This document shows, piece after piece, positions 6,777 to 58,000 of a DNA stretch of 64,000 bases. Under the pieces are notes generated by a model. It worked only from the letters and a program-made list of their open reading frames with translations, had not been told where the DNA came from and made no database searches. Every line of letters starts with the position of its first letter. Within the stretch, counting starts at the first letter, position 1. The translations under genes and the position numbers were made by a program. This DNA is from Amoebophrya sp. A120. Lineage: Eukaryota; Protista; Dinoflagellata. The DNA lies in NCBI GenBank assembly GCA_905178155.1, contig CAJINV010000013.1, forward strand, positions 2,972,158 through 3,036,157. Reading direction: 5' to 3'.

Positions 6777-9700
6777 ATGGGTTGCTGTTCGTCCGCCATG
6801 CTTGGGGGCAAGGACGCCCTCAGTCTGCCGAAACGAACCAACAGCATGTACATGTACGACGAAAACTACGAAAAGCGGGACCAGGGTTCGTACACGCCGG
6901 CCAATTTTGACCCGAACAAAGCCAACAATTTAACCAAGAAAAAGGACAAAATTCTCATCTCCTGCGAAAAGTCCGCGCTCGTGCACGTATAATTTGCGGG
7001 TTTTTTTGTTGAAAAAAAATCATCCGACCTCTAATCATGAGTTATTACATCGAAGTAATAGTTGTACAGCCATCCTAGCATTGCGTGGGAAGAAATGTGT
7101 GAAGATTTTTTGCAATGAAAATTTTTCTTCGCCCAGAAGTACAACGACACACGCGATCCGAGTGAGACTTTTAAAAACGTACCATTTCTACTACTGATTT
7201 TACAGGTCCTGAAAACCGGGGTACTGCTGGAAGAATACCTGATCCGGAACAACGTCCGCGGGAAGCAAATCATAATTTCCTGCGTCGACGTGTCCGCGAA
7301 AGAGCCGAAGGACAGCAAGTACTACGACTACCGATGGCGCTGCAGCTCCTTCCGGTTCTTCGTCGAATCAGACGTGATCGCCTACATTCCCGTCGTCACG
7401 GACCTATCAAATGCAAAAATGTCTGGGTCTGGAAGAATGCAACTGGTCATGCTAAATCTGAAGCATGCAAAAATCTGTGTTGCATGATTACCACAAGTCG
7501 CCCAGTTTTGACCAAGTCGGGGGGGGAGTTTCTCATGCAGGATAGGCATGAGAGAGATGGCACAGAATCTGTCATGCTAGGCCCTGCATTGCAGACCTCA
7601 TGGGTCATGGAAAAGCTGCATGACAAATCGCGCATGCTTCCAGACCCAGACATTTTTGCATTTGATAGGACCGCTGGCTGAGCAAAAAGGCGACCCACTT
7701 CGAGCTCGCCTGGATATCCGAGGCGAAGATGCTCTGGCAGGCGGCGCACCTCGGCCAGGACAGTCACGACGGGGAAGATTTCGGCGATTTCGGTTCCAAC
7801 CTGTTCCCGGTCGCGATTTTGTCCCTCGCGTTGGACATCCAGGACGACGAGACGAAGGGACTGCAAAAGAAGACGAAGAAAAACAACAATAATAATCACG
7901 ACAATTCGCAAACCATTTCGAACAAAAACACCAAGGCATCCGGCGGTCGCACGGTTGGGGACGATTTGGAGAGGCGGAAGATCCTCGAGCGGTCCTCGGG
8001 CTACAACCACAACCTGCTCGTGTTGTCCTCGATCACGCAAAAGTGGGTGCGGCAGGACAAATCGAAGAGACAGCTGGGCGTCGCCGGGTTGAACCAGTTC
8101 AAGGATCCGCGATTCGTCATTTCCGGGAAGTTCACGGTGAAGACCATCGATCCGTTAGGCCGGGCGGAGAAGCCGGCCGGGAAAAACTCCGAGGAGAACA
8201 AATCGAACGACCCGGACATGTTCGCGCGGGAATTGTCGCACCACCTGCTGTTCTCCGCGTTCAAACAGGTCAGGTTAGAAAAGGTCGCGGCCGACGGGGG
8301 CGAGTACGAGCGGCAGTCGATCAAGTACCGGGCGGAAGCGGTGCGGAACGCGCTCGGGAAAAACTGCTCCGTCGACGAGGCGCACAGCGAGCCGGAGGAG
8401 GTGCTCACGTCCGCGCGAAGCCGAGGGGTGGTGAACTTCGACCTCGGGGGGGCTGGGGAGGATGAGAATGGAGAGAAAATGAAGCCGGGGTCGTCGAAAA
8501 TGCCGAAAAGGTCTGGGTCGCCGAAAATCCCCAGCATAAAGAAGAACAACTCGCTGTCAAAAGTCGTCGGCGTCGGGATCAATACGCCGAACCACGCGGG
8601 AAAAGGGATTTGCTCCGCGTCCGTGATCGGCCCCCTGGACACGGTTTCGGAGCCGAGTCCCAGAACGGATAGGTCGGTCGTTGGGGAGTTGTCGAGCTCG
8701 AGGAATAAGACGGCTGGTGTAGGGGAGAATGGTGCAGGAGGAACATCAGGAAATATTTCTAATCAGGACAAGAACCTGTTGAACTTCGAAACGCACTCGA
8801 AAATCACAGAGGAGGAGACTGCGACAACGATCACGGAGGAGGTCGCCGTGCCGGCGAACATGCCCCATTTGTACTTGAATTTCGCGGAGGCGAAGAAGCG
8901 CGGGCCGGGGAACAACAGTCCGCGCCTCAGCAAATCGCAGATTCGGGCGAGCCGCGCGGGCTCGAAGGCGAAGAGCACGGCGAGCGGGGAGGGAATGAAT
9001 GCGCAGGAAAAGGAGCAAGAACAGTCGCTGTCTGGGACGGACGCGGTGCTGAAAAGGATGTCGGAACAGATGGAGAGGGAAAAGCAGGAAAATAACGCCG
9101 TCGTTGTTGGTACACCGCCAGACCAAACAGGCACAGTAGACGAGAAAACCAATCTTAAGCCAGAGGCAGAACAAGTAGATGATCCAGCGGACCTCCAGCC
9201 CGGCAATTCGCCCCGCGACCCGAGTAAAGAAGTTCCGTTGGAGCTCAACCTCGACACCCCAGCACAAACCTCCAACCCGGCGCACTCGACCACGACGGAA
9301 CTCCAACTGGCGAAGTCGCAAAACCGCCGCCCCACGCCGCTCCGCTCCCCGCTGGGGCAGTTCGCACCGGGGGATAGACTGGTGATCCACTCGCTGGAGT
9401 CGAACCCGGAGTACAACGGAAATTTCGTGAAAGTCCTCTCTGTTCAGTCCGCCGACATGATCGAAGTTGTGGTGCCGACGCAGGGCAATGAGCGGCTGTT
9501 CATCCCACCCGCGAACCTCGCTCCGTTACAGGACCCGAAGGCGATGTTCCCCGCCTTAACGCCCTCCGCGCACGGGTCGTTGAGCCCCGTGAGCCGGCAC
9601 GTGTCCAGCCCGACGATGCGGGGATTTGGGTCCGCGCTTGACAACAAACTGTTCGCCATGAACCCGGATAGTGAGGACGACGATGACGATTTCTTCCTGG

Positions 9701-12700
9701 AGGAGTCGGATTCGGATATAGACATTCCAGAGCAATTACTCACCGAGGCGATCAATCGGGATAGATTGTACGCGGAGCGATTCGACGAGAACGGGGAGGA
9801 GGTAAAGAAGGTTCCCGATGGAAATATAAATAAAGGGATGAACAACCAGCAAAATCATCTGGAAAAGACGATGGAGGATTTTCTCCCGCCTATCTACTGC
9901 CCCATAGACATCGAGAAGCTGGCACAGCAGCTGCCGACGAATTTCGGTACACCCGTGCATTTGGGACAGAGTAAGGGAAAGAAGAAGTCTCTCGGCTCGA
10001 CCTTGTTGGAAGAGGGAGAGGAAGATGATAATAATATCCAGGTCGTTGTAGCGCAGCCACCGGGCATGCCGGTGATTCCCAAGAAGAAACTACCCGAAAC
10101 AGTACTATCGCCGGAAGTGGAAAAGGAAAAAGAGGAGGAAAAGGTTCGAGAACAGAACGCAACAAGTAAATCCAAGTACAACACTTCCGTGGCGCCGACA
10201 GCAAATAACGAGGAAGACGACGACCCGGGAGTGTCGGATCTCGACCTTTCCAACACCGCCTTAGACCCCGGGCTGGCGGATATCGACACCGGGAACTTGA
10301 TGCGGGAGCACTACCTCCGGAAGGGTTTGGAGGCAGTGTACGGAGAGAATAACGTGCCGCGGGAGCTTATCGCAAGAAAAAAGTGTTACAGTTACACATT
10401 GTGTTGCAAGAGCGGCAACACAGACAACCTTTCTCATGCAGGAAATGCTTCGGAGCCTCGTTTCCTTCCTGTTTTCCCTTATGATCTTCGCATTACAAGT
10501 TTTCTCTGCCAGGCAGAGAAAATTTGTGATGCCGAAACTCCAACAAGTGTGTAACTGTAACACTTTTTTCTCATGATAGAGCTGATCCAGGCGAGTTTGA
10601 ATGACACGAGAATGCAGCGCGGGAAGTTCTCTGTCCCCGGAGGAGCGAAGACGAACATCGGGGGACACCAGACAGCTGCAGACAGCACCATCCGGTCCGC
10701 GTCCACCGTGAACGAAAATAATGCCGAATTGAAACAGACCGGGGCGTCGTTGCCGACGAACAGTAAGTCTATGAACACCGCTTCTGGGCAGCAAGTCGCG
10801 CCGGAGGACTTCGGGTTACCGAGTCTGGCGAAGATGCAGACCACGGAGCACGCGAAGCGGCCGGTGCCGTTTCCGTTGAACCTAGGGCAAGAGACCAAGC
10901 AGGAGACGAAGAAGATGGACATGAGCCAGGTGGTGGTTTTGTCGGACACGGTCGGGAACGGGCTAGTCGGCTTGCTCGGCGCGGTCAACGAGGAAAACGG
11001 GAATTTGCAGCCAAATTTGTCCTCAGCCACCTCTCCGGTGAACGAAGAAAACGAAAACTCCGATCCGGACATCGAAGACACGATTTTGAAGCCGCTGTCC
11101 ACCGAGGAAGTCGCGAAGAGGAAGGAACTCGCTTTGCAAACGAACAAAAACCTCTTCGCGCCCATTGGGGGTGGGAAGGTCGGAACTGGCAAAACTTCGC
11201 CGCCGCAGCCGCCCAGTCCGCCGGACGAAAGCAAAGGAGTACAGCAGGAGCAAGCAACTATGCCTGGGCCGAGACTCTCCTCCGGTCGCATGGACGAGAG
11301 CCGGTCTTCGTCGAAATCCGGGTCGCAGTCCTTCACGCCGCCCAAGGCCCCGGCCGGAATCAGACCGCCGTCGTTGGGCGCGCAACATGGAGCGACGTCT
11401 CGACCGGGCAGCGCGTCTATGGACGAGCAAACCTCTTTTTCCACGCAGCAACAGAGAACTTCTACAGGATCTTCCAAGCCGAGGTCCGTCCCCTTCGCGC
11501 TCGACATGCACAACGTGAACGACCCGCGCGCGCAGTTCCTGGAGACCATCGTGGGATTGGTCGTTCGGCCGCCGATCAAGGACATGGGGTCGGAGGACCA
11601 CCGGTTCCCGTCTTCCGTCATCGACGAGACCATCGAGGACAGCAGCAGCAAGAAGCGGCACTTCTACTCCGCCTTTATCGACGGCTCCATCACCCGGGAG
11701 ATCCCGAAGCAGTTCCGCGGCAAGAACTTCCAGTGGCACTTCTTGGCGGAGCTGCGGAACTCCTTTCTGAACAAAAACATCGTCGTAAGAGAGAACGAAA
11801 AAGACACGAAGCCGGACGAGCCGGACCGGGACAAGGAGGAAACGTTCGCGACGCAGAAAATTGTCGAGAATCTGCATGAATTACTGGAAAAGGACAACAC
11901 GAAGATGGTCTGCTACAGCACGGACATTTCCAAGCGGGAGAAGTACAAGGCGCTCGAGGAGGTGGAGAAGATTTGCCAAACGTACAAAACGCTGAAAAAC
12001 TCTTTGGCCAAGCACCGCGCGGACGAGCTGGCCGGGTACTTTGGCTACGACTGGCACCCGGATAACAAGGCGAATTTGTTACTCTACTCCGAGTACATCG
12101 ACGGGGGGACGGTCCATGACCGAATTCAGCTGAAAAGACTGGCGAACCGAAAGGAGATCATGCGGAACGAGCTCGCATTTTCGAAGTTGACCAGCGACCA
12201 GCAAGCCATGTACGGTTTGAGCGAGAAGGAAGCGCACTTTATCCTGATCCGGGTGCTGCGGGGCTTGGAGCAGCTGCACTACCTCGACATTTGCCACGGT
12301 GCGCTGCGGGCGTCCAACGTCGGAATCAATCGGCGGAGTGGCCGCGTGCAGCTGTTGGACTGGGGGATGTTTGATCTGCGGAAGTACTGCAACGACGAGG
12401 GGAAAACCTGGAAGGCGAAAAATTGTCGGTGGATCGCGCCGGAGTGCCTGCCTGATTTCGGGCCGGGAAGGGGAAGCAACTTCTCGAAGGGAAGCGACAT
12501 CTGGAGCTTGGGATGCTTGGTAAAAATGATTTTTAAATTTCCTGTTTGTTTCAGTTTTGGTCATACTACGTGGCATGAAAAACATCACTCAGATCTATCG
12601 CCATGCTGCGTGTAATAGCATCAAGACATAAAGATTTTGTGCTACACTTGTTCCACGCATTTTTTTTTTACCAACAAGAAACTCACACAAACAGCTCCTT

Positions 12701-16531: not shown

Positions 16532-17719
16532 GCTGTGTTTTGTTTTTTGCAAGAACTGAGGGGGTCTAGAAAAAAAAAATAAAAAATCAACCGACAGAGA
16601 AAAGTCCAACCCGCACAGAGAAAACTTCGCAACACATAAAAAACTTCCGTCGTGCAGAGAAAACTTCCCGCGGTGAACATGGTCGCAGAACTAACCTGCA
16701 CGCGAGACACTGGCGCAGCTTCTGCACGCCTACCCTCGCGCGGTCGGCCGGCGTGCGTTTTATTGTTTTTGGAAAAACTCCGCGCCGAGCGGCATCCGTG
16801 GCTGCTTTGCGGCTTCAATACGTAGGCGCGGAGTTCCTTCACGCCTTTGAATGAAGCTAGTCCGTGTGGTGCTGTGGAAGGGTTGGCCGAGGCGGCGCAC
16901 GTGCATCCACAGGGCCGCTAGGCTTCGCCGGGGTGTGCAACCACAAAAGCGCGCGGCGGCGCCTTCAGGCTATTGGGGGCGCGCGCCGTGCTGGCGTGTG
17001 GCAGCGAGCGCGCAGGCCCGCGCGTGCGCAAATTCCTGGCGGGCTGCGTGTGTCCTGCGTGCAGGGCCGGGACATCGCCGCTATTGGCCGAAAAAATTAG
17101 TCCGCGCGCTTCGCGCGCGGTTTCGGCGGGTAACTTTTTCTGCTGGGGCCCGCCCTCCGTCCGCCGGGCCGGCCTACCCGCCCCGCCTTGGCTTTTCTTG
17201 CCGATAGAAAAATCAAACACGAAAAAGCCCCCCGGATTCCCATTTGGGGCGCTTCTCGTTCTCGTCTGGGTTGCAAAAGTTTTTTTAGGTTCGCGCGCTT
17301 TTTGTTGCTACGGCCCCGCCCGGGAAGTGGCGGACGGCAAAAACTGTCTGGGAACCGGATTCGGAGCCGGAAGCCGAGAAAAAACTCCGCGCGCGCTGCG
17401 CGCGCGAGTTAATATGGTTTCTGGTTGCTTAGGGGTAGGGCAGGCCCGTTTGTGCTAGGGCGGAGCTTTTCAAGAATGCCGGGCCCGGTACAGTGTTTCT
17501 CCTTCGCGCTCCTGTTGGGTTTTGCAATTTTGCCGGCGCGCGCCGCGCGCCTGTCTAATCCTTTCCAGGATTAGAAGCAATTTGCGTTGTCGCGCATGTC
17601 CCATGTCCATGCGCGCTCCCACCCACGCCCTTCAAAGGAAGCAAAAGCGGCTGCCTGTGTCGCCGTAGGCCATGCGAAATAATTCTTCGCGCGCGCTGCG
17701 CGCGCGATGCGGGTACCCT

Positions 17720-18065
17720 AATGCCGGCCGAGGCATTTCTACCTGGATTCCGGGCGAGGATGCCGGCTCGGGCCTTTCTGCCTACCTTGATTCTCTCTCA
17801 GTAGAAATGCTGGGCCTTGCATTTCTGCCTTGATTCCCAGTAGAAATGCCGGCTGAGGTGGTATTTCTGCCTGGATTCCCTGTAGGAATGCCAGACCTCC
17901 TGGTATTTCTGCTTCGATTTCCTGTAGGAATGCCAGGCCTGCTGGCATTTCTACTTAAATTTCCTGTAGGGATCTTCGATCTCTGGCACGAATGCCATGG
18001 CGCTTGCGCTTCTAGCTTGATTTCCAGTAGAATTGCCAGCCCTCCTGGCGTTTCTACCTACCTGG
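17720..18065. repeat. About 42-bp degenerate tandem repeat with internal hairpin, abutting assembly gap
   Basis: Units such as CTGTAGGAATGCCAGGCCTGCTGGCATTTCTACTTAAATTTC, about 8 copies. Confidence 0.8.
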
Positions 18066-18522
18066 NNNNNNNNNNNNNNNNNNNNNNNNNNNNNNNNNNN
18101 NNNNNNNNNNNNNNNNNNNNNNNNNNNNNNNNNNNNNNNNNNNNNNNNNNNNNNNNNNNNNNNNNNNNNNNNNNNNNNNNNNNNNNNNNNNNNNNNNNNN
18201 NNNNNNNNNNNNNNNNNNNNNNNNNNNNNNNNNNNNNNNNNNNNNNNNNNNNNNNNNNNNNNNNNNNNNNNNNNNNNNNNNNNNNNNNNNNNNNNNNNNN
18301 NNNNNNNNNNNNNNNNNNNNNNNNNNNNNNNNNNNNNNNNNNNNNNNNNNNNNNNNNNNNNNNNNNNNNNNNNNNNNNNNNNNNNNNNNNNNNNNNNNNN
18401 NNNNNNNNNNNNNNNNNNNNNNNNNNNNNNNNNNNNNNNNNNNNNNNNNNNNNNNNNNNNNNNNNNNNNNNNNNNNNNNNNNNNNNNNNNNNNNNNNNNN
18501 NNNNNNNNNNNNNNNNNNNNNN
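18066..18522. other. Assembly gap (N run)
   Basis: Continuous Ns. Confidence 0.99.
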
Positions 18523-19935: not shown

Positions 19936-20174
19936 GTAGGGCGCGGAGGGCGACGAGCTTGGAATGGGATTGTGGACAATTACTTCTTTAGACTTTTTTT
20001 GTTCTTGTTGAGTTTGCATATTACGGATCCTAGTGATGCGGATAGATTGAAAAGTACAGCAAGGTCGACTTTGTTGACCTTAGGGCTGTTTCAGATGATC
20101 CACCAGTTCGACTGTTAGTTCGACTTCTTTTGACGTTTCCTTGTAAAATTCTCCACTTTGTGATATGAACGTGC

Positions 20175-21523
20175 AAAATGCAAAAGGGGTCAACCCAAAC
20201 TAAGAAGTTTTTTCGCTGTTTGGGCAAAAAAGCTTTTCACTTTCGGCCGTATTTGCTCTCGCCAGGTGCCCCTTCGCCGTGCAATATTGAATGCTGCGAA
20301 CGTATCAAGGCGCTGAAAAATGAATCTGACTGCCGCGCTCTATCTAGGTTGTCGCAGGCTTTGGCCTTGCGCGGTGCTGCAGATGAAGCGCTCCTAGAAG
20401 GTGTCTCAACAGGTGGCGCGCGAACCTATATACCGGCGCAGCTGCTTGGGAGGTTGAGGTGACACACCTCCACCGAGGCGCGCCAACTGTGTTTCTCAAG
20501 GAGCTGGCAGCTGGAGGCGCGCCAGCGTTTGCTAACACTCGAAAATGCTCTGCGCAGAGACCGCGCCGCCCAGTCTGCCGCAAAACAACTCCAGAAAGCA
20601 CCCGCGCGAAATTGCTCCTTGAGAGTGTCCAGGATCATCTCCGGACACAATACAGGTCGCATCCGCATGTGGGAAGGCGCTTATCCTGGCCAGGGGCTCA
20701 CGCCGATCACGGAGCTTGCGCGACACATTGGAGCCGACATTTCTCGCCTCCTTTCCTTCTTCGCCGAATGCCGCTCGAGGAGAAGAAACTTCTGACTTTG
20801 GGGATGTTTTTGCCGGATTTTGCCAAAACTTCGCCAAAAACCCGGATTTTGGCGAAGTTTTGGCAAAATCCGGCAAAAAAATCGCCAAAGTGAGAAGATT
20901 CGTCTCATTGAGCGGCTTTCGGCGAACGGGGAAGGGAGAGGTGAGACCTCTGCTACATCGTGTCGGGCAAGCTCCGGGATGTCCGAACCCCGGGCCAGGA
21001 TTAACCCTTTTCCGCATGTGGATGCACTCTGGCTCGCGTCCGAGAATAGCTCTGGACATTTCCCCGGCAGCCCGCGGAGCAACTCCGCAAGGGAGCTCGC
21101 TGGAGTTGCTTTGCGGTAGATTGGGCTGGCCGGTCTCTGCGAGAGGGCCGGCGCTTCGAAAATCAGATCAGGAGGCTGATGCAACTGCAGCGGCCGTCAC
21201 GCTTGACTTGCTTGAGAGGCACAGCTGGCGCGCCACGAGTGGGATGCGTCATCCCAACCGGCCAGCGAGTTGCGTCTTTAAGTTCCCGCACCACACGCAG
21301 ATGCGCGCTGCAGGATCGCGCCAGCTGTGGCACTGCGCAAGGCCTGCGACCACCTGGAACACGACAATCAGTATTGATTTTGCGCAACCTAACACGCGCA
21401 ACTCGATCCAATATCGCGCGGAGAAGGGGCAGCTGGTGCCGGCAAATGCGCCCGAAAATGAAAAGCTTTTTTGCCCAAACAACGAAAAAACTTCTCTGTT
21501 TAGGTTGACCCCTTTTGCATTTT
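20175..21523. mobile_element. About 1.35-kb non-coding foldback (whole-length imperfect palindrome) flanked by 39-bp direct repeats
   Basis: Ends AAAATGCAAAAGGGGTCAACC / GGTTGACCCCTTTTGCATTTT; perfect 33-bp central stem 20807-20839 / 20847-20879; arms alignable between; TTCTTTTGACGTTTCCTTGTAAAATTCTCCACTTTGTGA at 20125-20163 and 21522-21560. Confidence 0.85.
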
Positions 21524-22654
21524 CTTTTGACGTTTCCTTGTAAAATTCTCCACTTTGTGACGATGGTTCTCTTGTACAATCGAAAGGATATGATTTAGCG
21601 TGTTGAGGAGCCTGTCCTGAATAGTAGCCTGTACATTTCTCTTTATTCACAATTGCGTTTCTAGTCTCTCGACTTCACTTTTTCACTTTACATTGCAATA
21701 TCTACGAAAAATGCCACTTCGCCTGTACATCACAGAAATTTTTGTTGTTTCGTGTTGTATCAAAAAGATATAGCTTCGCTCTCCTGTAGCTGTAGCACGC
21801 ATACCAGTTTCGACGTAATGTAATTATTTGAAGTTTAGCATACTGGAGGTTTTCTAAATTTTTCTCTGAATCATACTACCCGAAATTCATCGCAAGTTTG
21901 TCTTGTAACATGCATCTGCCGTGGCTTTCACGTTTTGCCGCGAACAGTTTAAGATACCTGTAACAAAATTACATTGAGGAAGAGGCCGCGTCAAAATTTT
22001 CGTATACAATTGAACCTAGTTGGCTTGTGATCGGCGCTCTCCTCCTAACTTGAATGAAGTTTCTGCGCAGAACGAGTTTCTTACTTCCGTACTACCTGTA
22101 TTTCTATTTTGACAGAAAAAAGCGACTCATCTGGAAAATTGCACCTGCATTATTGGCACACAAAAGATGACGCTAGATTTTCTATTGTTGATTGGCGTGT
22201 ATACAAGATAGAATCTTCATGCAACGAGCTCGACGAAGGCAAAATAACGCTTTCTGGTGACTTTACAACGTGGTTGCATTTCTGCAACGAGCTGTTGCTG
22301 TATTTGCTTTTAAACGAGCGACGAAAGGGACTTGGGAGAGACTCCGAACCAATCATGAGTAACTTTTGTAATCACGACCAAAGTCTACTATTGAGAGTCA
22401 GAATGAGAGTGAGAGTAAGTCCACGAAGTTCTACCATCGATTTCTTTTTCCCGTTGTTTTTTCACTGCGTTTTTTCTCGTGACAAACAAACAGGCCCTCT
22501 GTGTTTTTTTTGCACCTTTTTTTAGCTCACTAAACTCACGTCGGCTCCTCTCATTCGGAGACCATTCATCTAATTCCGAATTCATAAACTAGAACTACAC
22601 GGGCAAGGAACTTCTAAGTACTCAGCCTGAGGACGGAAGCAAGCTCCGCTTTCC

Positions 22655-27549: not shown

Positions 27550-27904
27550 TTTTTCTGTGGGAGTCGACGAACTCGTTCGCTGGTATAGGCAAGAAACCAC
27601 GAAGACATTTGTGGAGATTTCTTTGTACAATCTTGGGACCACCGTGTAACGATTTTAGAATTTTTTTTCAATACGAAGCTGAACTTGAACTGGAGCAAGA
27701 GAAACCAAAACACGCGATGTAATCCGTGCAAGAAAGCCTCTGGCGTTTTGCTTTTGTCACTCACAACAAAGCGACGTGTTTGACTTGATTGTAGGCGCGC
27801 CTTTGTTCTTTAGGAGAAAAACAACATTATTGCGCTTCCGAGCAAACACTTCCAGATTTTCTGATGAAGTTTCCCATTGAAATAACAGAAACATCAGATT
27901 GTAA

Positions 27905-29522: not shown

Positions 29523-32232
29523 ATGACAGGTAGGAAGCCGCGTAATATCGCCAGTGCCGCGGCGCTGGCGTTTTGCACTTTTTCCGGGCTGCATCAAGTG
29601 CACACCGTGGTTTCTGCGACGAAACTGCACCTCACTGCGGGCGTCGTGGGCAGTCGGGACCACAGCGGGGCTGGTTCATCTTCCAGTGTCACTGGTCACT
29701 CGTCCCACGTGGTGACGAAACCGCAGAAAAAGTTTCGGTTTCTGGCGGCGAAACCGACCACCTTGTCGATGAAAATGGCTTGCGCCACGACGTTTGCGGT
29801 GGCGATGTTCTGTCCGACCGGAAACTGTGCGCCGCTTGAGACGGTGCCGTTCGTGAACAAGAAGCCGCTTCTGAACCAGTCTCGGTTCATCTCTTCGTAC
29901 ACCGGCGGGCCGCTTATGAGAGTGCACAACTCCCTCTCCCCTTCATTTGTGTTGCATGAACAGCAATACAAACACCTGCAGACGTGGAGCCTGTGCATGA
30001 CAAATTCATGCGCCTAGTGTAGTACTGTTTGGGATTCCGGAATCTGTCATGCAAACAGTGCCAGAGGGAAGCACTTGGATTTGGGGTTTCCTTCGCATGA
30101 CAAATGAGTGGGAGGGGGAGTTGTGCACTCTCATACCGCTGCCAGCCGACAACTGCCCGATGTCTTATCCGTCGAAAGAAGGGGAGGAGAGCCAAATTCT
30201 GGGAATGGTGCAAGACGTATGACTAGTGAAGTCAATCGCTCCTCTTCATAGGTCACCTATTGTGCGCTTTCTATGTTGAGTGTCTAGCTTGCAGGTTGTC
30301 GGTGTGTCGGGGTAGAACGTGTGGTACTCAGTTAAGCAGGATCTTCTACAGGATCCATATGATAACCGAGCAGGTCTAGTACTGACTTCCAGCTCTTCCT
30401 GGCGCAATTTCGAAGTACTTATCATTCTGTGTTGATTTTTTCGCGCAGAAATGCAATTGGAATTGACAAAAACGGAGAAGCACATTGGTAGCTGCTAGGG
30501 GACAGAGCGATAGTATGTTTGCATGTAATAAGACGAGACTGTGACGGAAGCCGGCGCTTTTCAATCCGCGTGGCCAGCAAAGATCCTGAACGGGAAATGG
30601 TACGCGAAATTTGGAATGTAGCAGTCGGGTGGACGACGAGAAACGATGGAGAACTTTGTCATGCCAGATCGGATACTGGTGGTAGTTCCGACAACAATGC
30701 AGTTTATCGTGCAACAGGCAAAGATGAACAAAAAATGTCAGGTACGTTATCGCCGCCGCGGACGCGTTTCAACCGACGGAGGAGTACAAATGCACGCACT
30801 ACGATTACAAATTCGATCCTATGCAAAGTCACCGCGGCGTGTTGATAAAGCCTGTGCAGCGACGTCTTCGTGTTTTTCTACTTTCTTCGCATGACAAGTT
30901 GCGTGTATCGCTTTCCTTCGAAAGGGTCGTGACAACATGTACTTACTAGGGGTACAAACTTCGCGCCACATAATTGTTTGTCTGTGACGCAAAGACGCAA
31001 ACATGATGACAAAGAAAAGGACATCAGCGGCGGTCTTGTGTTGCTTTGCAATATTCCAAAATTCCGGGCTGCCGCGGGCGGTTTGGAACAGCTTCGACGT
31101 GGACAGCAAGCAGTGGCAGAAGATTCCCTTGCAAGGTTTTTTTGTTGCAGCTTTGCTTTTGCTCCTGTATCTGCATGACAGAAGCTCCTGTGTCTAGCTC
31201 TACCTGTGCAGCCGTTCCTGCATATCATCCTATACAAATCACGGCGCTACTTTGTTCTCTCAGGTGAACTGATGAAATCAACCTCCGGTACGTTGATTCC
31301 CGGGGGCTACCGAGAGACTCCGATGCGCATGGGCGAGAAGCAGGACCCGTGGTTCGTGCCCATTGTGCACTTCACGGATGATACGCGAGGGAAAGTTTTT
31401 TTAAAAGATTTGCTAGGCGTACAATCCGCATGACAACGTGCCAAGTTGCATGTTACTTGTCATGCATGCAGCCACAGGTAGGACTAGTCTAGCAGAAAAC
31501 AAAAGTTTCTCATGCATACTAGAAGGGGAGCAGCAGGACATTCTGGTCAAGTGGGGCTGCACGAAACCGCCTCAGGGAAATGTGAACTTTGTGGAGGTAC
31601 TATATTCGTACGGTGGTTTTCCTGTTAGTCTTAGTTTTGCTATGCCGAACAGATGAAAATGGCAAGGAGTGTAGTCCCCGTTCGAAATTGATAAACAACG
31701 GGCACCATTGCGAAAACGAGATGAAGTCCACTTTCTCCACCGAAAAACCTAGGTTCTTTCGCGGAAGCCGAATGTGGATTACACCGAGGTGATCGAGGCG
31801 ATTGCCCACCTGATGCAGGAAGGCCAGGAAATCACGCCAGTGATTGAGAACATGCGGCCGGTCACCCAGGATTGCCCTGACGTGGTGCCGCCGATGGCCG
31901 GGATGGATCTCTGCCGCGGCCCGGATTGCGACGAGAATCGGGCGCGGGGGAGCAGCTCCAAAGAAACGGACCTGGGGAACGAACAGCAGTTGCCGATTGC
32001 TCCTACTGGAACGCATCTCTGCCGGGGGCCGCACTGCGATGAGAATCGGAAGAGCGTGCAGTTACCGATCGAGCCGACCGGGACTCATCTCTGCCGGGGG
32101 CCGCACTGCGATGAGAATGGGAAGAGCGTGCAGTTACCGATCGAGCCGACCGGGACTCATCTCTGCCGGGGGCCACACTGCCACGAAAATGGGGTGGAGG
32201 TGGAGGATGGTGGCAGTATGGTGCATGTCTAA
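29523..32232 (+). CDS. Lipocalin-fold protein with hydrophobic N-terminal leader and C-terminal Cys/His repeats, multi-exon
   Basis: Spliced ILNGKW|YVIAAADAFQPTEEYKCTHYDY (GT-AG intron 30600-30741), ILVKWGC, VLSRKP, PVTQDC follow lipocalin conserved regions; exon boundaries near 30860-31020 uncertain. Confidence 0.6.
29915..30135. mobile_element. Introner/MITE family F, TSD CCGCT
   Basis: 25/26-bp TIR TATGAGAGTGCACAACTCCCYCTCCC; CCGCT on both sides; frame GGPLPADNC. Confidence 0.93.
30218..30530. mobile_element. Aged introner, TSD AGACG
   Basis: TAT...ATA ends, weak IR, AGACG on both sides; frame VQDETVTE leads into the lipocalin GKW motif. Confidence 0.72.
31382..31518. mobile_element. Aged introner, decayed TSD (GATGA/CTAGA)
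   Basis: Degenerate TIR TA.GC..G.GAAA.TTTT...TGCTAG.C; removal of element plus 5 nt gives TDEGEQQD in frame. Confidence 0.6.
31906..32190 (+). repeat. 72-bp coding tandem repeat (24 aa LCRGPHCDENxKSVQLPIEPTGTH)
   Basis: Unit starts at 32017, 32089 and 32161 (last partial), plus a diverged copy near 31909. Confidence 0.92.
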
Positions 32233-42794: not shown

Positions 42795-45700
42795 ATGAAC
42801 AACGACTCGACTCCGTCCTCTTCCTCCCGACCGCAGCGTCGGGTTCGGAACCTCTTGGCGAGCTATCTACGCATCGCAAAGGTGATCATTTTCTATGCAG
42901 CATATGCATGACAGGCGACGGCGGATTAATCAGAGTTTGTCATGCAAAAAATGGATTCCGCTAATGCTCTGTCATGCTCGAAGTTGCACGTAGAAAATTC
43001 ACTTTTTTCCCCTCGATACTCCTACGCGATCGACGATTTTCCCAGCAGTCCGGAGAAGGAACGAGAAGCTGGAGCAGCGGCCGGGGACTACAATACCAAA
43101 ACAGCCTTGTCCGGCGGCACGGCGGGTTCCTCAGCTTCCTCCAGCCAGTACAGAAATCACGATGCGAACAATCATCGCAATGGCAAACCGTCCCAAAATC
43201 CGTTTGACGAACGTGCGTTCGATGGCCATAACTTTTCCGCGGAAGCCTGGTTCCAGAGATTGATCGCGATCTCGACGTCGAATGCCGGCCGAGGAAGTAA
43301 TAGTTACACAGGCGGGACGAGCAACACCAAGATCAGTACGAGAGGTCAACAACAGCAAAACTCTTCCTCGAAGGAACTGCTGCAACTTTCGAACAAGCTC
43401 ACGTCGAAAATTCAGCAATTGAATGCCGACATCCAGACGCACGTCTACGAGAACTATTCGAAGTTCATCCGAGCGACAGATACTATCCACGCGATGAGCA
43501 ATGTGATCAGCAGTCGGCTGATTCCGGTGGATTTGGAAGACCTGAAAAAGTCGGTGAACCGAATCAGCCTGAAACAGGAGAAAACGCTGTCTGCGGGCAT
43601 TCTGGTCGTGAATGATAAAGGAGGAGTAGACCTCCAAGCCGCAACTACGCGAATGCAGCGCAACACTACTACGACTAGCGGAGAACAACAAGTCAAAAAC
43701 CCTGGTTCAAGAACAGCGTCTCGCGACGAGGATGGAGGTGAGTGGCCTGATGTATCCAACCAGAATAACCCCTCGTTGGAGCAGCAGGCGGAGCAGATTT
43801 CGGCACTACTGCTGAAGCAGGAGAAACTGGAGAAGGTTCGCATGTTGCTGAAAGTGCCACTGGTGCTGCAGGAGTGTTTGCAGCAGCGAAACTACGGGTA
43901 CTGTGCCGAAGTGTATTGCAAGACCATTCCGATCATGCGCAAGCGCCCGGATTTGTTTCGGGAAAAGATCCAGCAAATTGACAAGATCATGCTGGACTTG
44001 TGCGGGAAGCTGGAAGCGCGACTCGGCGAGACGGCGGCGACGACGAAAGAAGCCATCAACTGCGCGCAAACGTTGATCGAACTGGGCCAGGAGAAGCAGC
44101 TGGTGGCCGACAAATTTTTACTCGGGCGAAAAAACATGCTGGAGCTCGCCGTGAAGCAGGCCTGCGCGACGACTAGTACAACCGGTGCCGCAGTTTCAAG
44201 TGCTGTCGCGGCGCAGCAAGAACCGCAGGACGAGTATCAGCGGGAAAAATCCCCCCTCCCCATATTGAACGGGTATGTTTCCGAAAATTTGTGTTGCGGA
44301 TTTGCGGCCACAAGTCACGTTCGTATTGCAAGAAGAAAGGTCAAGGGCAGAGGCTTCCGCCCCGCTATGGAAGCGATTTGTCATGCTGTTTGGCCTAAAG
44401 GGGAGCCGTTTGCCATGCTGAACCACTAGACCCATACGCCCCTCCCTAGCCTGGGGACCTGGCCGCAGTGCCTCTCTGCAATACAAAGCTGATTGGTGTA
44501 GTACGCAAATCCAGCATCAGAAACTACGTTTTTATATGGGGAGGGGGGATGTTTCCATTCGATAACGAGGAGCATTTTCGGTTGTCGGTGTCAAAGCTCC
44601 TGGATCGGTTCTGTCCGCAGCTGAAGGAAGTTTTGCAGGAGTTCTGTCACTGTTTCGACTACCCGGCATTCGCCGGCAGTGTGCGGGAGATGGTGTTGGC
44701 GGTGTTGCGACTGCTCCACGAGCAGGTCCTGCAGCTGCTCGCGGCAAACAGCATCATCAACCCAAGCACTGTAAAGACGTGTATGCAGGAACTGATCACG
44801 CTATTGGAGGTGGATGTGCTCGCTCTGACGCTCGCGACGAAAACAGGAGACAGCACAAAAGACTTGAAAAGCCTCGCGGAGGCCGTGTTCAAACAGCAAG
44901 TGAAGAAGCAGTTTGTCACGGACATTTCCCTGCTCTCCGTCGCGAAAACGTTCGAGCAAGCGGGGAAGCAAATGACCACACAGCTGGTGGCATTGCACGA
45001 GGAGCTTGTGGGCGGGAAAAGCGGAGCTGGTGCAGTTTCTAACGAGGAAGCGCTTGAGAAAATCGGTAAAACCTATAAGTATCTTCACTGTTCCTTTTCC
45101 GTATCGGAATGGTAATTGCTATTGCTTCTATGCATGTAGGAGGTTCCAGATCCAGCGAAACGGGAAACATGCATTGGAAATAAAACAACATTGATACCAG
45201 GGGCCTGCGAGCACGCGATTCTTCTCGACGGGTGTTTGTCGCTGACCGACTGCCAGCCGCTGCTTGACCTGGTCGACGGCTCGAGCACTGCGAGTCTCTT
45301 GGTAGACGCTTTGGTGAAGCACGTGAAGGAATTTTTCTTGACTTTTGGCGAAGTTTGCAAGCTGTTGTGCCGGGACAAGGGCGAGAAGACACAGTCGGAC
45401 CTTACCGTTTTGCCGGTACAGAAACTGTTTGGCGTTGCCTGTTCCTTGCTCTTTTTCAATTTATTGTCATTTCGGACCAGAAGAAGCATGCATACATCAT
45501 GAGATCAGTTCTATTTGCGCGCTGCGCAATAAATGCAGCAACAGAATGAACCTATCACCAATTCACAGCCGACCGAAATCTCTCGGATTCGGGCCCTTTC
45601 CTGGAATTCCATGTTTGCGCTCGGCCTGGTCCGCCTTGGCCGCCACTTGGAGACGCGGGGGGTGACTAAAGTTTTCAACGTGGGCGCCGATTTGTTCGGC

Positions 45701-47079: not shown

Positions 47080-49878
47080 ATGTTGCGAACACTAAACGCG
47101 CAGCAGCATCAGCAGCAGTTTTGCGCCGCAATAGCGCGCAGCTCGCAAGCCGTATTATCGAGTTCCGGTGCGGCATCTTCCAGCTCTTCCGCTTCCGCGC
47201 GTGCGTTCGCCACGACACGCGTAATCCAAGCCGGGATGAAAAGAACGACTCTAGTCCCTTTCATGTCTGGTCGCTCGCACAGGTGTGGGCACCGGATAAT
47301 ATCAGCGGGAACGAAATCCTCCAGAAGCGCGAAGACGCAGCGCGGACTGTTGGCCGCGCCAGGACAGCTACTTTTCAGGAATGATGTGATGAGTTCTTCC
47401 CACAACCAAATCACAAATTCACTCTTCAATCGCGCGTTTAGCACCCAGCTTCCGTCTGCAGCCACGACACCCAATCCCGCAGCGACGGAAAAAGAGAGGT
47501 TGGTCATTTTAGGTTCTGGTTGGGCCGGCTACCGTTTGCTGCAAGATGTGGACCACGAGAAGTATCAGGTCAGCGTGGTGTCGCCCAGAAACCACTTTTT
47601 GTTTACGCCACTCTTGGCGTCCGCCTCGGTTGGGGGCTCGGACATCAGCAGTATTTGCCACCCTGTGCGGCCACTAGTGGCGGAAAAGGTATAGTAAATT
47701 TACTGTGGGTGCCATGGAATTCAATGCATCACAAAGTCTCGTTCCCTCCAGCGTGTCACTCCTGCATGACAAACTAATCACACGACCGGAAAATAATACG
47801 AAATAGCTCTGCATAACCATAAGTCCACAACATACAACAGGACGGGCGCTTTTACGAAGCCAGGGCGATCTCGCTGGATAAGAAGAAGAAGATGATTCAG
47901 TGCCAAACTTTGGATGGCCGGGAGTTTCCACTTGCCTACGACAAGTTGGTGATCAGCATTGGCTTCCAGGCAAACGACTTTGGGATCAAAGACTTAGGTA
48001 TGAACATAGATCAACAACCTAGGCAAGTCAATTAAGGTTAGGTGACCATAGAATCACATGACACACGACGTCGTCGTTTCCCATGCCAAGAACGCACTGA
48101 ACAAAGAGCGCACGACTGCTGATGAAAGTTGAAACCAAAACCCCACCCCTTCCCTACACAGACCAACACGCCTTTTTCATGAAGGAGACCGCGGACGCGA
48201 AGCGCGTGCACGATCACATCCTGCGTTCCTTCGAAGAAGCCTCTTTCATTCACATGCTGGACGGGGATGAGAATGTCTCGCTGGAAGAGGAGGAGCAGAT
48301 TCGCGAGGTGCTGTCCTTTGTCGTCGTGGGCGGCGGCCCCACCGGGACGGAATTTTGCGGCGAGCTCACCGACTTTTTGAAACGGGACATTGCCGTGCAG
48401 TACCCGCATTTGTCTCCCTACTGGTCCGTTCACTTGATCGACGCTCTACCGCAAATCCTGACCCCGTTTCAGAACGCGGAGCTGCAGGCACACGCGCTGG
48501 AGCACTTGCGAGAGAAGCAGGGCGTGCAAGTACACCTGTCGCAGTTTGTGGACAAGATTGAGCACCACCGGATCTACTTGAAATCCGGCATGTCGTTTCC
48601 CTTTTCCACGCTTATTACAGTGAAAAATGCCCCCCCACCCCTAAAATTGGAAAAATTTGTGATGCGAAGTTTCCAAATGAAAACTTTTTGTCATGCATGA
48701 AATGAGTTTAAATCTTTCTGCTGCAGAATCCAGGCGTACATGGTATATCGCATCAGTTGCATGACAAGCGCCGCTCTTGCTGGGGTCTTTTGCAATACGA
48801 ATCTTTGCCATTCACGGTTGGAAACCTGTGATGCTGATAGATGCAAGAGGGCGAATGTTTCATTTGGAAAGGTTTGCAATACAAATGCTCCCAAGTTCGG
48901 GGGTGGGGGCATTTTTCATTTTGATAACGCTCGTTTGGTGTGCGGGGATCAAGCCGCTGCCCTTCGTGGCGGGCTTGGACTTGGCGAAGAACGCCAAGGG
49001 AACGCAACTGTTGACGGACGCCCAGTTGCGGGTAAAGGGCGAGGAGAAGAACGGGATCTACGCGCTGGGGGATTGTGCGTCGATTGAGGTAAGTACTGAA
49101 AAACACTAAGAATGTTTCAGAAAGGATTTGCTTTTTTCATGTGGGGAACGAGCATGTGCATGACTGAATACACCTGGTGTCTTCATGCACGCCGGGAGTG
49201 TTACAGTCACTCTCACATAAGTGAGCAATTTCTTGAATCAACGGTATTCAAAAATGATTGTAAATTCGTTCTGGTCCTCCATCAATACAACACCAGACAA
49301 TGCCGATGCCGCAGACCGCGCAGATTGCGTCGCAGGAAGCTGCTTACTTGGCGAAAGCCTTGTCTCTGGACAGCCACGAGGTGCCCAACAATTTCGAGTT
49401 CAAGGACAAGGGCACCCTCGCCTACCTCGGTGGGACCAGCGCTCTGTACCGAGTGCCGTCGAATCTTCCGGTCCCCCATCTGCGCGGGCTGCTGGGCTGG
49501 TTCACGTGGCGGAGCGCCTACTGGAGCATGCAGCTGTCCATTCGAAACAAGTATAGTGCACAAGGAACTCTTGTTCTTTCCATTTGTAGTGTATTTTCTT
49601 GTTGATGCGATCATTGATTCTGTTGAACGGGACAACAGCACAATGTGCTTGTTTTGCAATGCAGAAATAACGCCATGAAAAGGTTTATGCTGGCTTGGAA
49701 CTGGATCTCCAACTACGTTTTCGGGCGGGATCTCACCCGCGTCGGCCGCCACTCTTCGCCGGTGGAGTTTCTGCTCGACCGAAAGGTATCCTCCGGGAAG
49801 AAAAAACGCAATCCCGCAAGGTCCGTGTCCCCCGAGGCCTCCAAAGCAGATCCCATTCCGGCCAGCAAGACCGCCTGA
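47080..49878 (+). CDS. Type II (alternative) NADH:quinone oxidoreductase, mitochondrial
   Basis: LVILGSGWAG, SPRNHFLFTPLL, VVGGGPTGTEFCGEL, LVWCAG, IYALGDCA, PQTAQIASQE, WRSAY, FGRD; Arg/Ser-rich presequence; four GT-AG introns plus one introner. Confidence 0.93.
48613..48926. mobile_element. Introner/MITE family C variant, TSD ACGCT
   Basis: TGAAAAATGCCCCC / GGGGGCATTTTTCA; ACGCT on both sides; removal restores the conserved STLVWCAGI. Confidence 0.92.
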
Positions 49879-51390: not shown

Positions 51391-52094
51391 AATCATTTTG
51401 TTTCTTGCTACTGCACCAAAATGGACTTCTGGTGGAAATGCGGTAGTGATTCATGTGTTATGACTATGAGTTTTGAAAAAGATGATTGCGATTCGCAATG
51501 TCGATGCAACACAGGCACCTCCCCCACCTTCACCAAGGCGGTCCTACCCTCCCCGACAACGTTCCGTTCCAGGAATTCCCGCGTCCGGACCTGACGGTCT
51601 TACGCGGCCGGCACGAGGCTGCCAGACCCCGGACGGGGGCACAGATGCTCGACGGGCTCCGAACGCCCGCAGAATTGAGAATAAACGAGCAAACGCACGT
51701 TCTACCGCATGCAGAAAACCCGTTTGGCAAGAGGATAGGCTGAAGGAGGTTGGTTCTACATGTAGAAGTAATTTATCATGTAATGAACTTAGAGCAAAAA
51801 GAACTCAAACGAAGGCCAGCTGATTCCATGCCTGTGCTAAGGGCATTGATCCTAGGAGGTGTTCTACTTGCAAAGCCAAAGCCGAATCGGCTTCCCGGAG
51901 GTGGAAGATAGACACCACTCTCATCGTCACCAAGGCATCCAACTGCGGTTCACTGAGACGCGCGGAACAAGTGCAAATTACGTAGTCTGTCGGTACGGAC
52001 TCTCTCTCGACTTCTATAGAGCTAAAGGAATAGGAACCAACAGCACTCTGATTCCACGAATCATTGACCACGACGTGAGCTTCATTGTTCCAAG

Positions 52095-54195
<2,101 letters not shown>

Positions 54196-55077
54196 ACAAC
54201 GTTTAGACGTACGGCAGCGCCGTTTGGTCGGCCTTTTTGGTTTGCAAGTTTGAAGGAAACTACTTGTGCGGCAGCGTTGGTTTCAATCACGCAGCGCCGT
54301 AGTACGCACTGCAACTATCGGCACTGATGCGGGTTTCTTTGATGCAAAATTTGCGTTTGGCTTTGGAGTTGCGTCGTGTTGCATGAGGAATTTGTAGCAA
54401 TACTGGAAAGAATTTTGCAAATTTTGCACAGAAGTTGCGGATAGCGTTTGTCGATTCATACGTGGCCGAGGACCTTGTGAAGCAGTGCAGCCAGCAGGTG
54501 TTGTGTCGGGAAGATGTCATCTGTGCGATGCTGATCAAAGAAGTTCTTGTCATGCCTCGCAGAAACACAGCTTGAGCGAGTTTTTTCGTTTTTGACTTTT
54601 GCGGTTTTGTATGAGCTGTTGATGTCGCATGTTTGAAAGTATTAAGGAACACTGCTTTTCTCCTGAAATTCGACCGCATTTGCGATGGACCAAAATTTTC
54701 CAAAGTAGCAAGACCGAAATATGAAAATGTTGTAGATACGATGCGATGTTGGCGATCACCAGCAGTCGCAGCAGGCTTAAGCCGCCTGCTGCAAGAAGAC
54801 AGATCAGCACACGGCAGTTCTATTTTACCTCAGGAGGGGAGGAAGAGCAAGACCCTAGCTGTGAGTTTAGCTGTGGGCGACAGCCGTTGAGAGGTCAGTA
54901 GACGTACCGATGATCGAGCATGACGGAAAACAGGAGGTTAAGTCTGTGCTGCGCTGAGGCGGAGGGGACAGACACGCGGGAGCTTAAGTCGCGGCAGAAA
55001 ATGACCTTCTTGAGAACTACGCAGTAGAGCTGCACGACCCGCCGAGTCGTGAGTAAGAATAAGAGTCGATATCCAAG

Positions 55078-58000
55078 ATGCTGGCGCCAGCCGTCGTTCT
55101 CTTTGTTTCGTGTGTTTCCGTGCAGGTTTGTTCTGCACCACCAGGCACGAAAGCTCGCGCATGCGCATCTCAGTCTAGCACCGAGGATGTTGAAGAGATC
55201 GATGCGGGAGAAAAATCGAACGGCCCACAATCACCAGCTTCGCAGCTCCAACTGCCCGCAGCTGCAGGGACCACAGCGCCCCCTAAAGAAGCAGAGGCTC
55301 TTCATGAAGAGGATTTTCAGCCCGCTGAAGAGTCTTCTTGGGCCTGGCTTTGGCCTCCGCGTTGGAATTTGTTCTCCGGATGGAGCCAGAAAAGCAGTTG
55401 TGGGCAACAAGCGAAGACTTCTTTCGATGAAGCATTTGTCCAACAATCTTCTGCGGCGACTTCGGATAGCGCAAGAACTCCGACATCACTGGGGCAAGAG
55501 CAGGATACCGTGGTTTGTAGTTCAATCCTACAACAACTCTCCCCGGCGGCCAGTGGCAGTACACGAGGTGTCGTGTCCTTCACTACGAGTCCGCGCGGCA
55601 CCGGCTCTCCAACGTGCCAGGACTTTGTCAGCAGCTCAACGGCAGCTGCGATTCTTGGTGTGAATCAGAACAGTCCCTATCCGGCTTGCGTTCGTGTGGT
55701 GAGCAAATTCTTGAACATTAAGAACTCAGAGCCGACCTCGCGTGTGAAGCAGCAGGCGTTGACTGCAGCGCTTAACTCCAAACGTTTAGAGTCTGGATCT
55801 GGCTCTGCACGGTCGCACACAGCAGACGAGGCAGTACTATCTGCTGGGAGACGAGCAGCAAGCCAGCACCAGCAGCCGTGTCTCAGCCAAGCGGAGCGGA
55901 TCTGTCGAGAGCTGAAGAAAGACGTCAATGTTGGTAAGGAAATGCAGCTGGTGGCACATCAAGAATGCACAAGAACCAGAGCAGATGACGACTCTCCTCC
56001 CTCAGTCCCAGCTTCGCCGCAAGCCACTCAAGCAGCAGATTCTGTAGCCTGCCAAGAGAACTACGCGGATCGCAACGAAAAAGAGCAGAAGCACGAAAGA
56101 GCCGGGTCGTCGTGGAAGATGCGCGACGTTTTCAATAGAAACTTCCGCCTGGTTTCCTTCGCAAACGCGCTGGGTGGCCGAAAACAAGCCACAACTTTTC
56201 CGCTAACCACGACAGCGTTGCCGACGTCCCGCTTGCAGGTGGGTAGGAACAGAGCAGCAGCACTGCCTGTTCCAAAAGACCAGCTCCACGCGACTTTGAA
56301 CCGGTTTGGCTGGGGCCACTTGGCGGAGGATCTGAAGTTCCTAAGCGACCAAGATCTCTACATGCTGCGGACGTTGGCGTACACTGGGAATGGTCGTAAG
56401 CGGACCAGGTCCAGCACTGCATCCTCGAGTACGAAGGAAAACCAAAAAGCAGGAACAAAGGAGGACGATCTTCTACCGGAAGAAGATGCATATGGCATCG
56501 AAGCTCTAAACCAATTCCAATCGGCGTCTTCCTCGTCTTCGAAGCAAAAGAGCCGCGAGCTTCAGGAGTTCAAATTCAAGGCTTTGAAACAGAAACTAGC
56601 CGGCAGCACGACTTCTGCTGCCGACGAGGGAACATCTACTACACTGACAGGTGCTAGTACAACAACTTTGCCGGCCAGGGATTCCTTCATATTGAGAAAC
56701 ATCCTCATGGCGGATTACTTTTTCGGCGGCTACAACGCGAATCAATTCAATTTTGACCAAAAACAATCCGTCGCGAGGGATTTGCGGACCAGTTTGTTTG
56801 AGGCGGGTGTGTTTTCGGACTCGCAAGTCGGGGATTTGGTGCAAACGCTGAAACGCAGGGCAGAAAATTACAAAACCGATTCCACTTCAAATTCTTGTGA
56901 CGCGGGTGCGTTTCCAGCAAGTGCGTCGTCGGCCCAAGAGCTTCTTTTGCAGACGAAGGAAAACTACTGCGGTGGCTCTGGCTCGTCTTGCTGCGTCGAC
57001 AAGGATCTGCGGGCCGGGTCGGTGCTCCGACTGGCGCCTTGCGAGCCCGACGGAGATGATCAGGAAGACCATCATGGAGGAGCAGGCACCGACGAATTGA
57101 AAGCCAGCAAGCAAACGAGTGCCGGGTCGTCTGTCGGAGGACAAGAGCTGCTTCATCTACCTGACAAGAATAACAAACTGACTTCTCGGAAATCACTCGG
57201 CTCTGACAGATCAAAATCCACCACGCTATCGACCTCTGCACCGAAATTGACAAACGCGGTCTCCCGGGTGTTCCAGTCCATGCAGAAGAATTTGAAGCAG
57301 CAACTGAAAAACAGTCGGAGCAACTTGAGTCTTATGCAAGAAAAAAACTGTGTAAGTGTAACTCTGTGATGCAGAAAGGGCAAAACAGTTACACTTGTCA
57401 TGCTGGACATGCATCAGAAGCTTTTTTCGTGCGTGTTTTCACGTATTAGCCGCGCATGACAGGCTCTCTCTGTCAGGCAGAGCAAATTTGTGATGCTATT
57501 CCTCCAAGAAAGTTACACTAACACAGTTTTTTTCTTGGATAAGTCTGTTCAGCGGCCTGACCTCGTCCAGTCGGAGGATATCAAGCGCAAAAATGTCTGG
57601 GTCTGGAAAAATGTAAACTTGTCATGCAGATTTTCCATGACCACCCATATGGTCTGGAATGCGGGACCTAGGATGGCAGACTCTGTGAGGTCTCTACCAT
57701 GCCCATCCTGCATGACAAACTCCCTCCCAACTTGGTCAAAAGTGGACAGCTTTTGGCACTCATGCAGCACAGATTTTTGCATGCTTCAGATTTACCATGC
57801 ACAGATTTTTGCATGCTTCAATTCAATTCAGATTTACCATGACAAGTTGCCACCTTCCAGACCCAGACATACTTGCAATCCATAGAGGAAGCGAAAGTGC
57901 AAGAAAGATAACTTGGAGAACGACCCGGAGTTTTTTCCCAGGAAGTTTCTGCCCAAGTTCGTCTTTCTCACCGACGTCGACGACACGTTCTGGTGCAGTA

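Follow-up and report, generated by a model that had tools for sequence, protein, structure and literature searches.

Introner elements of one family interrupt genes of Amoebophrya sp. A120 in both orientations

Elements and host genes in the window

The window analyzed in this work is a stretch of 64,000 nucleotides (nt) of the dinoflagellate Amoebophrya sp. A120 (GenBank assembly GCA_905178155.1, contig CAJINV010000013.1, positions 2,972,158 to 3,036,157 of the forward strand), and coordinates are counted from its first letter. A scan for elements with TAT..ATA ends and a duplicated flank, in which up to one mismatch was permitted in the duplication, returned 14 complete elements of 145-330 nt, and the 5-bp duplication was exact in 14 of 14. 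Between 19 and 30 of the first 30 positions are complementary between the two ends of each element, and all 14 contain stops in the frame of their host. Short, non-coding, bounded by terminal inverted repeats (TIRs) and 5-bp target site duplications (TSDs), and too short to encode a transposase, they have the features of miniature inverted-repeat transposable elements (MITEs). Judged by sequence, they are introner elements of the type described for this strain in the text of Farhat et al. 2021 (PMC7789003), and hence of a known kind.

Five of the 14, with lengths of 249-306 nt, belong to one family (family A), of which a sixth copy is cut by the window edge. Copies in the orientation of the element at 7405 relative to their host are termed class X (1-206, 5024, 7405, and 23079), and those in the reverse orientation are termed class Y (2058 and 57579). 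The family A copies and their principal hosts are as follows.

207..5310, plus strand: host CLC chloride-channel gene, recognized by Pfam and orthologues; its start precedes the window, and introners and canonical introns are mixed within it
55063..61101, plus strand: host frame of the elements at 57333 and 57579; 1837 codons once both are removed, with a weak APP1-like Pfam match below the cut-off
1..206, plus strand: family A introner, class X, inside the CLC gene; cut by the window start, with its left end and duplication outside the view
2058..2319, minus strand: a class Y copy of family A, situated within CLC coding sequence; duplication GATGG; exact removal leaves a gap-free match to two orthologues
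5024..5272, plus strand: family A introner, class X, close to the CLC coding end; duplication CGAGC; contig arithmetic fits a 254-nt skip
7405..7667, plus strand: family A introner of class X with a perfect 30-nt TIR and a length of 263 nt; duplication GGACC at 7400-7404 and 7668-7672; 268-nt contig skip
23079..23330, plus strand: family A introner, class X, absent from the first-pass annotation; duplication AACGT; a GT-, GC-, or GA-AG (G[TCA]-AG) border is impossible
57579..57884, minus strand: family A introner, class Y, the reverse of 7405; 306 nt; duplication GAGGA at 57574-57578 and 57885-57889; the 1837-codon frame needs a 311-nt removal

Opposite orientations within family A

The first-pass annotation of this DNA had claimed that 7405-7667 and 57579-57884 are homologous in reverse-complementary sense while both hosts lie on the plus strand, and that 1-206 and 5024-5272 run opposite to 2058-2319 within the one CLC gene. 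Both claims were borne out when the pairs were aligned as it had proposed, since the alignments hold in the reversed sense only. Self-BLAST pairs 7432-7667 with 57819-57579 of the minus strand at 81% identity over 243 nt (E 1e-56). Because inverted ends align in both senses, the interiors alone were compared after 45 nt had been trimmed off each end, with shuffled sequences reaching maxima of 36-52. The interiors of 7405 and 57579 scored 233.5 reversed (z 50) versus 41 in the same sense; the corresponding values were 114 versus 29 for 2058 and 5024, and 110 versus 39.5 for 1-206 and 2058. The remaining family A pairs of the window are just as one-sided. The global identity of 57579 and 7405 is 71%, because of an internal duplication of about 42 nt in 57579.

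The host strands are established by several lines of evidence. The CLC gene lies on the plus strand by Pfam and by orthologues, the closest named relative of its protein being an A25 protein (64%). The element at 5024 falls in the final codons of the CLC frame and is covered by the same contig as CLC exons. The contig that skips 7405 also skips a GT-AG intron of the plus strand, and the kinase domain of that gene is on the plus strand as well. The 1837-codon plus-strand frame requires the removal of both 57333 and 57579, and an error of 1 or 2 nt breaks it.

A wider set of copies was obtained with a pattern scan requiring exact inner 18-nt repeats, which gave at least 133 stretches (L001-L133) holding at least 134 distinct family A copies; the 80 scan rows listed share one common assembly prefix, and the host proteins at two scan loci are identical to A120 gene models at 60/60 and 154/159 residues. 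The exact 5-bp duplication was present in 112 of the 134 listed copies, here without any filter for a duplication, and 13 of 125 in-register listed copies have mismatched duplications, some of them within coding flanks. A confident host strand was available for 56 of the 112 exact-duplication copies (41 by a coding model, 8 by Pfam, and 7 by long frames), the other 56 being unassigned. At a margin of at least 10 the coding-model strand caller, which is partly self-trained, was right on 21/21 and 19/19 window tiles with all window genes taken as plus; Pfam matches were found in 10 of 146 flank pieces, at 8 loci.

Among the 56 strand-assigned listed copies, 33 are class X and 23 class Y (binomial p 0.23). 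The coding model alone, applied to all 134 listed copies, gave 35:18 (n=53) when the margin was 10 and 14:11 for copies with agreeing flanks, and a mild bias is possible. Among pairs of copies at least 90% alike, 17 of 48 face opposite ways, including pairs at 95-96%; orientation is therefore reset at insertion and not fixed by subfamily. These data support the first-pass view that the element is tolerated either way round, and the count of sense and antisense insertions per family that had been proposed with it, made on the listed copies, extends to other families: C (5:2) and E (2:3) occur both ways, and D was counted at 6:0. In 55 of the 112 copies the element and its duplication together have a length divisible by 3, mostly because 262 nt is the most frequent element length; common descent of the copies may contribute.

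Exact removal of element and one duplication

The remaining nine complete elements, all of them introners, are given below without strand; the sequence in brackets is the duplication.

2391..2702 (GACCA): family B, in CLC, palindromic along its length
2737..3022 (CGAAA): family C, in CLC
4278..4556 (GCATG): family C, in CLC; a contig fits an exact 284-nt removal, whereas the 281-nt GT-AG cut that is also available does not fit
4833..4977 (GTCCA): family D, in CLC; contig-supported removal
10368..10578 (GAGCT): family E; 216-nt contig skip
44235..44564 (ACGAG): family B
48613..48926 (ACGCT): TAT..ATA ends resembling those of family B
57333..57541 (AGTCT): family E, 37 nt upstream of 57579
63209..63524 (GACAA): family B

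Transcript contigs come from two runs, X1 and X2, that were taken to be RNA by guess and whose contigs skip GT-AG introns; a further run, X5, is of DNA type. At 7405 the X1 and X2 contigs lack 268 nt and at 10368 they lack 216 nt, in each case the element together with one copy of its duplication. Another contig has 41 letters between 4827 and 5273, which is the exon size predicted after exact removal of 4833 and 5024. The same contig has 337 letters between 3626 and 4556, compared with a count of 335 plus the 2 exon bases 3627-3628, which fits a removal of 284 nt at 4278. Contigs thus support exact removal at five elements of the window (4278, 4833, 5024, 7405, and 10368), of which two belong to family A, both of class X.

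For class Y the evidence comes from proteins. Exact removal of 2058 leaves 83/102 identical residues in gap-free alignment with two CLC orthologues, and the GT-AG alternative adds one residue, that is, a gap. At L020 (1489-1749) a class Y copy interrupts an RBM42-like domain; the flanking matches stop at residue 390 and restart at 392, with one split codon between them. The removal is of 266 nt, which is not a multiple of 3, there is no AG among the exact borders, and the protein is 60/60 identical to the A120 model. Its RBM42-like host is, by match to a solved structure, a tri-snRNP-associated splicing protein. The class Y copy at L025 splits an ABC signature whose spacing is constant in 120 of 120 homologues, and against these exact removal scores above every G[TCA]-AG cut. 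L090 is collinear with an A120 gene model across the junction. With the host strand taken from the flanks, the frame favoured exact removal for class Y in 9 of 16 cases, with 7 ties and 0 against, and for class X in 14 of 29, with 9 ties and 6 against. Class Y copies would thus appear to be removed exactly as well. Mismatched duplications at four loci did not place the cut: one gave no match, one a match reading into the element, and one diverged past the junction; at the fourth, L090, the A120 model carries the downstream copy, but the strain is slightly different.

Borders of the removed segments

Placement of a G[TCA]-AG border is possible in 6 of the 56 strand-assigned listed copies on the sense strand and in 5 of 56 on the antisense strand, and in 1 of 24 copies of other families. 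GT/GC-AG borders are found in 5 of the 56 copies and, under exact removal, in 0 of the 14 window elements. Within the window a G[TCA]-AG placement exists for 2 of 14, namely 7405 and 57579, the very pair chosen in the first-pass annotation, and four of the five contig-supported removals have none. The duplication itself shows neither a base consensus nor a strand asymmetry (p 0.11 and 0.24). A G at its first position (8/14 in the window) was considered as a signal and dropped in the larger set, where it occurs in 16 of 56. Since the element is lost together with one duplication, the offsets of the two cuts from TAT and ATA sum to 5 nt; at most one cut can therefore touch a fixed base, and one or both lie in unconstrained host sequence.

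Orientation itself, which the first-pass annotation had regarded as hard to explain for a conventional intron, does not make that case. A TIR of at least 30 nt renders flipped ends identical, so that the first and last 30 nt, covering donor, acceptor, and branch-point-like motifs, are the same in both orientations. In the canonical introns of the window, branch-point-like motifs lie no more than about 25 nt from the 3' end. YTRAY is the branch-point consensus, and it is present in the last 60 nt of only 6 and 4 of the 134 listed copies in the two orientations. The case against a conventional intron rests on the missing GT/GC/GA-AG borders and not on orientation.

Conservation and pairing of the ends

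The end motif consists of TAT, 7 nt, and AAA, with positions 1-3, 11, and 12 conserved at 246-249 of 250 ends, and eight of the outer 12 positions are near-invariant as sequence (at least 245/250 ends). On either strand these ends are predicted to fold into a terminal stem, with a median of 26-29 of 30 pairs, folding z values of -9.6 and -4.6, and no strand difference in energy (p 0.57). Position 10 alone covaries between the arms (odds ratio 3.1, p 0.004). Positions 13-30 are set by the search pattern, and the tests for pairing selection accordingly cover the outer 12. Pairing is thus predicted to be available and selection for it is absent from these tests, so that reading of the sequence by a protein may fit equally well. 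The first-pass proposal of symmetric recognition through the TIR stem or through bidirectional motifs stands insofar as it places recognition in the ends; either the stem or the motifs may be what is read, and two tests for selection on pairing were largely negative. In all families a T-run lies 11-15 nt from the 3' end. An end variant starting with TATG assorts independently between the arms and was found, at one particular end, in 12 of 23 class Y versus 5 of 33 class X copies (post hoc p 0.007).

Relation to known introners and introns

The text of Farhat et al. describes A120 introners with inverted repeats that start with TAT, 7 nt, and at least three A, with direct repeats of 3-5 nt, non-canonical borders, and repeated families; it gives a hairpin model, declares open the mechanism by which tens of thousands of non-canonical introns are removed, and reports no transposase found in A120 (PMC7789003). 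The window elements share the inverted repeat, a direct repeat within that range, TAT plus 7 nt plus AAA, repeated families, and non-canonical removal (class X contigs). Beyond what that text contains, the present data add an exact 5-bp duplication outside TAT/ATA, a count of both orientations, the 5-nt offset rule, and a position-wise profile of the ends. Element orientation relative to transcription is not discussed in its main and supplement text, figures excluded, where "orientation" refers to genes. The methods of PMC9860276 permit opposite-orientation matches. No paper found states orientation independence of Amoebophrya elements, in a search limited to non-subscription literature and thus not reaching Roy 2023 and Huff 2016 in their published form.

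In other lineages the property is documented. According to the text of Roy et al. (10.1101/2020.10.14.339549), classes 1, 2, 3, 6, 7, 8, and 10 of Polarella glacialis are introners of spliceosomal type with TIR and TSD that form introns both ways, and either-orientation introners of Aureococcus are cited there. The window family resembles these (33:23 of 56 listed copies), but the Polarella and Aureococcus elements obtain GT/GC/GA and AG either from their constrained duplication or from the end of the element, whereas here the duplication has no consensus and such borders are mostly absent. Orientation alone is therefore not unusual; what is unusual is the lack of GT/GC/GA-AG borders combined with a consensus-free duplication. 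The either-orientation property is real, yet it is a property of elements already known.

Closer parallels exist in Euglena, where nonconventional introns were studied in knock-in tests that, as described in PMC12501133, place the cuts N3 before and N5-6 after paired motifs, and for which the authors argue a non-spliceosomal machinery. Shared features are non-canonical borders, terminal pairing (predicted here), slidable direct repeats, cuts offset by free bases, coexistence with GT-AG introns, and an origin from MITEs, which has been proposed for the Euglena introns (PMC12501133, PMC11282704). The Euglena signature N3CDG...CH'GN5-6|R is however absent here, where positions 4-6 are mostly C-A-A (position 6 is A at 245/250 ends), other offsets would place the signature positions on TAT or on the free duplication, and the lineage is unrelated. 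Orientation independence was not seen for the Euglena introns in PMC12501133. Fritillaria and tunicate introns are likewise described as MITE-derived, non-GT-AG, and very abundant, but, unlike the elements here, they retain an AG-AC/AT consensus, and their splicing is attributed to a U2 spliceosome that has been altered.

Possible mechanisms of removal

On balance we lean slightly toward the reading that these are MITE-like introners that lie in exons in both orientations and are excised from the pre-mRNA by an end-reading machinery whose cuts fall a set distance from those ends. The signal for recognition must be part of the mirror ends, with one cut or both positioned by distance. As ends, duplications, and counts suggest, insertion would be carried out by a transposase of the cut-and-paste type with a 5-nt stagger and random orientation. 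RNA of either strand would then start with TAT-N7-AAA and end with TTT-N7-ATA, and its ends are predicted to form a terminal stem of 20-30 bp. The element and one duplication would subsequently be removed, as contigs indicate for class X and three other families and proteins suggest for class Y; it would follow that the cut offsets sum to 5 nt and that at least one cut falls in consensus-free host sequence. The cutter may be a ruler that measures from the paired ends, similar to that of Euglena, rather than a reader of GT and AG. Such an end-based signal with a distance-placed cut would explain the free spread of the elements. Orientation independence, the lack of a duplication consensus, and the 5-nt offset narrow the openly unsolved problem of A120 splicing and make it testable.

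Several observations pull the other way. The pairs named in the first-pass annotation are not the cleanest cases, since 7405 and 57579 both permit GA-AG and 2058 permits GT-AG at the cost of 3 additional nt. That the runs behind the contigs are RNA is a guess, and according to PMC8240250 the loss from cDNA of a hairpin flanked by direct repeats is a known artefact of reverse transcription. RNA evidence covers class X, and the evidence for class Y comes from proteins; 2058 has no listed RNA cover. The strand-free six-frame test was weak, with 72 of 103 for the exact versus 55 and 68 for shifted removals. In the outer 12 positions G-U pairs (19) are no more frequent than A-C (23) on the sense strand, so that no selection for RNA pairing is seen, and positions 4, 5, and 7 vary independently between the arms (odds ratios 1.0, 1.8, and 0.9). 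The invariant end bases may equally be what a transposase needs. Finally, A25 and A120 splice GT-AG introns although the text of PMC7789003 reports no detectable U1, which would also fit a modified spliceosome.

A stronger form of the end-reading model, which we regard as possible and put forward tentatively, would be a second, strand-blind splicing system beside the spliceosome, in which a non-spliceosomal nuclease-ligase acts on the TAT-N7-AAA mirror ends with a 5-nt ruler, in convergence with Euglena. The enzyme could possibly be a domesticated transposase or a tRNA-splicing-like enzyme. If true, such a system would make these transposon insertions silent at any site, phase, and orientation.

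An unlikely but serious alternative is lariat removal by a modified U2 spliceosome, for which the 3' arm would provide a U-run and an ATA end, mirrored when the element is flipped, the other cut being placed by distance without U1. The T-run common to all families and the conservation of the end bases as sequence, not merely as pairs, fit this explanation, as does the altered U2 system described for the non-GT-AG introns of tunicates. In addition, PMC7789003 reports most spliceosomal proteins, and no U1, as found in A25 and A120, and according to the text of PMC12005148 a strain with canonical introns has U1. However, at least one cut would lack a consensus base, which tunicate introns retain, the branch-point consensus is as rare as noted above, and in the predicted fold the 3' arm lies hidden within the stem.

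It is improbable that the elements are skipped before RNA processing, either through DNA excision in a growing stage or through a polymerase that jumps over a DNA hairpin by re-pairing of the nascent duplication. This would explain strand blindness, the exact loss of one duplication, and the missing G-U bias in one step. However, X5 DNA contigs cross from flank into element (184-2082, 5246-7428, and 7645-10383), which makes the filled form the predominant one in that DNA, although contigs omit rare variants. Transcript runs moreover contain element sequence and element-flank junctions, with one intergenic bin at depth 0, and the mismatched duplications in part of the copies also speak against a skip of this kind.

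Template switching of the reverse transcriptase, with the element kept in the mRNA and bypassed by the ribosome, has very little probability. A hairpin between direct repeats is the classic signature of that artefact, the transcript data are of cDNA type throughout, and a 5-nt duplication always contains one whole codon for take-off and landing. The joined form is however the path of a depth-61 contig that spans two elements. Known ribosomal bypasses measure about 50 nt, and the elements, with their 145-330 nt and host-frame stops in all 14 window cases, are far longer, while host proteins are conserved across the sites.

Equally remote is ordinary splicing in which, as in Polarella and Aureococcus, GT/GC/GA and AG would be recruited from the duplication or its surroundings: 7405 and 57579 permit GA-AG, some copies GT-AG with a 3-nt change, and 15% of A120 canonical introns have such a layout according to the text of PMC7789003, but the scarcity of these borders on either strand and in other families, their absence from four of five contig-supported removals, and the misfit of the GT-AG cut at 4278 largely refute it for the family as a whole, and it could hold for single copies.

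Other features of the window

The CLC gene holds seven elements within about 5.3 kb, and exons of just 29-66 nt separate adjacent elements at 2325-2390, 2708-2736, 4983-5023, and 57547-57578. The three family B elements (2391-2702, 44235-44564, and 63209-63524) are palindromes along their whole length, so that their orientation is ill-defined. A further TAT..ATA element at 29915-30135, with 36-nt arms and an apparent 5-bp duplication, has no AAA at positions 11-13 and fell outside the scan filter. Rfam gave 0 matches in the window. At 17100-18522 the sequence is GC-rich, with CGCG palindromes and short repeats, and adjoins an assembly gap of N at 18066-18522. An imperfect whole-length palindrome of 1.35 kb at 20175-21523, 71% identical to its own reverse complement, is apparently intergenic and has no TAT/ATA ends; exact copies of a 39-nt direct repeat border it at 20125-20163 and 21522-21560, and the segment 20125-21560 is possibly a foldback element of another kind.

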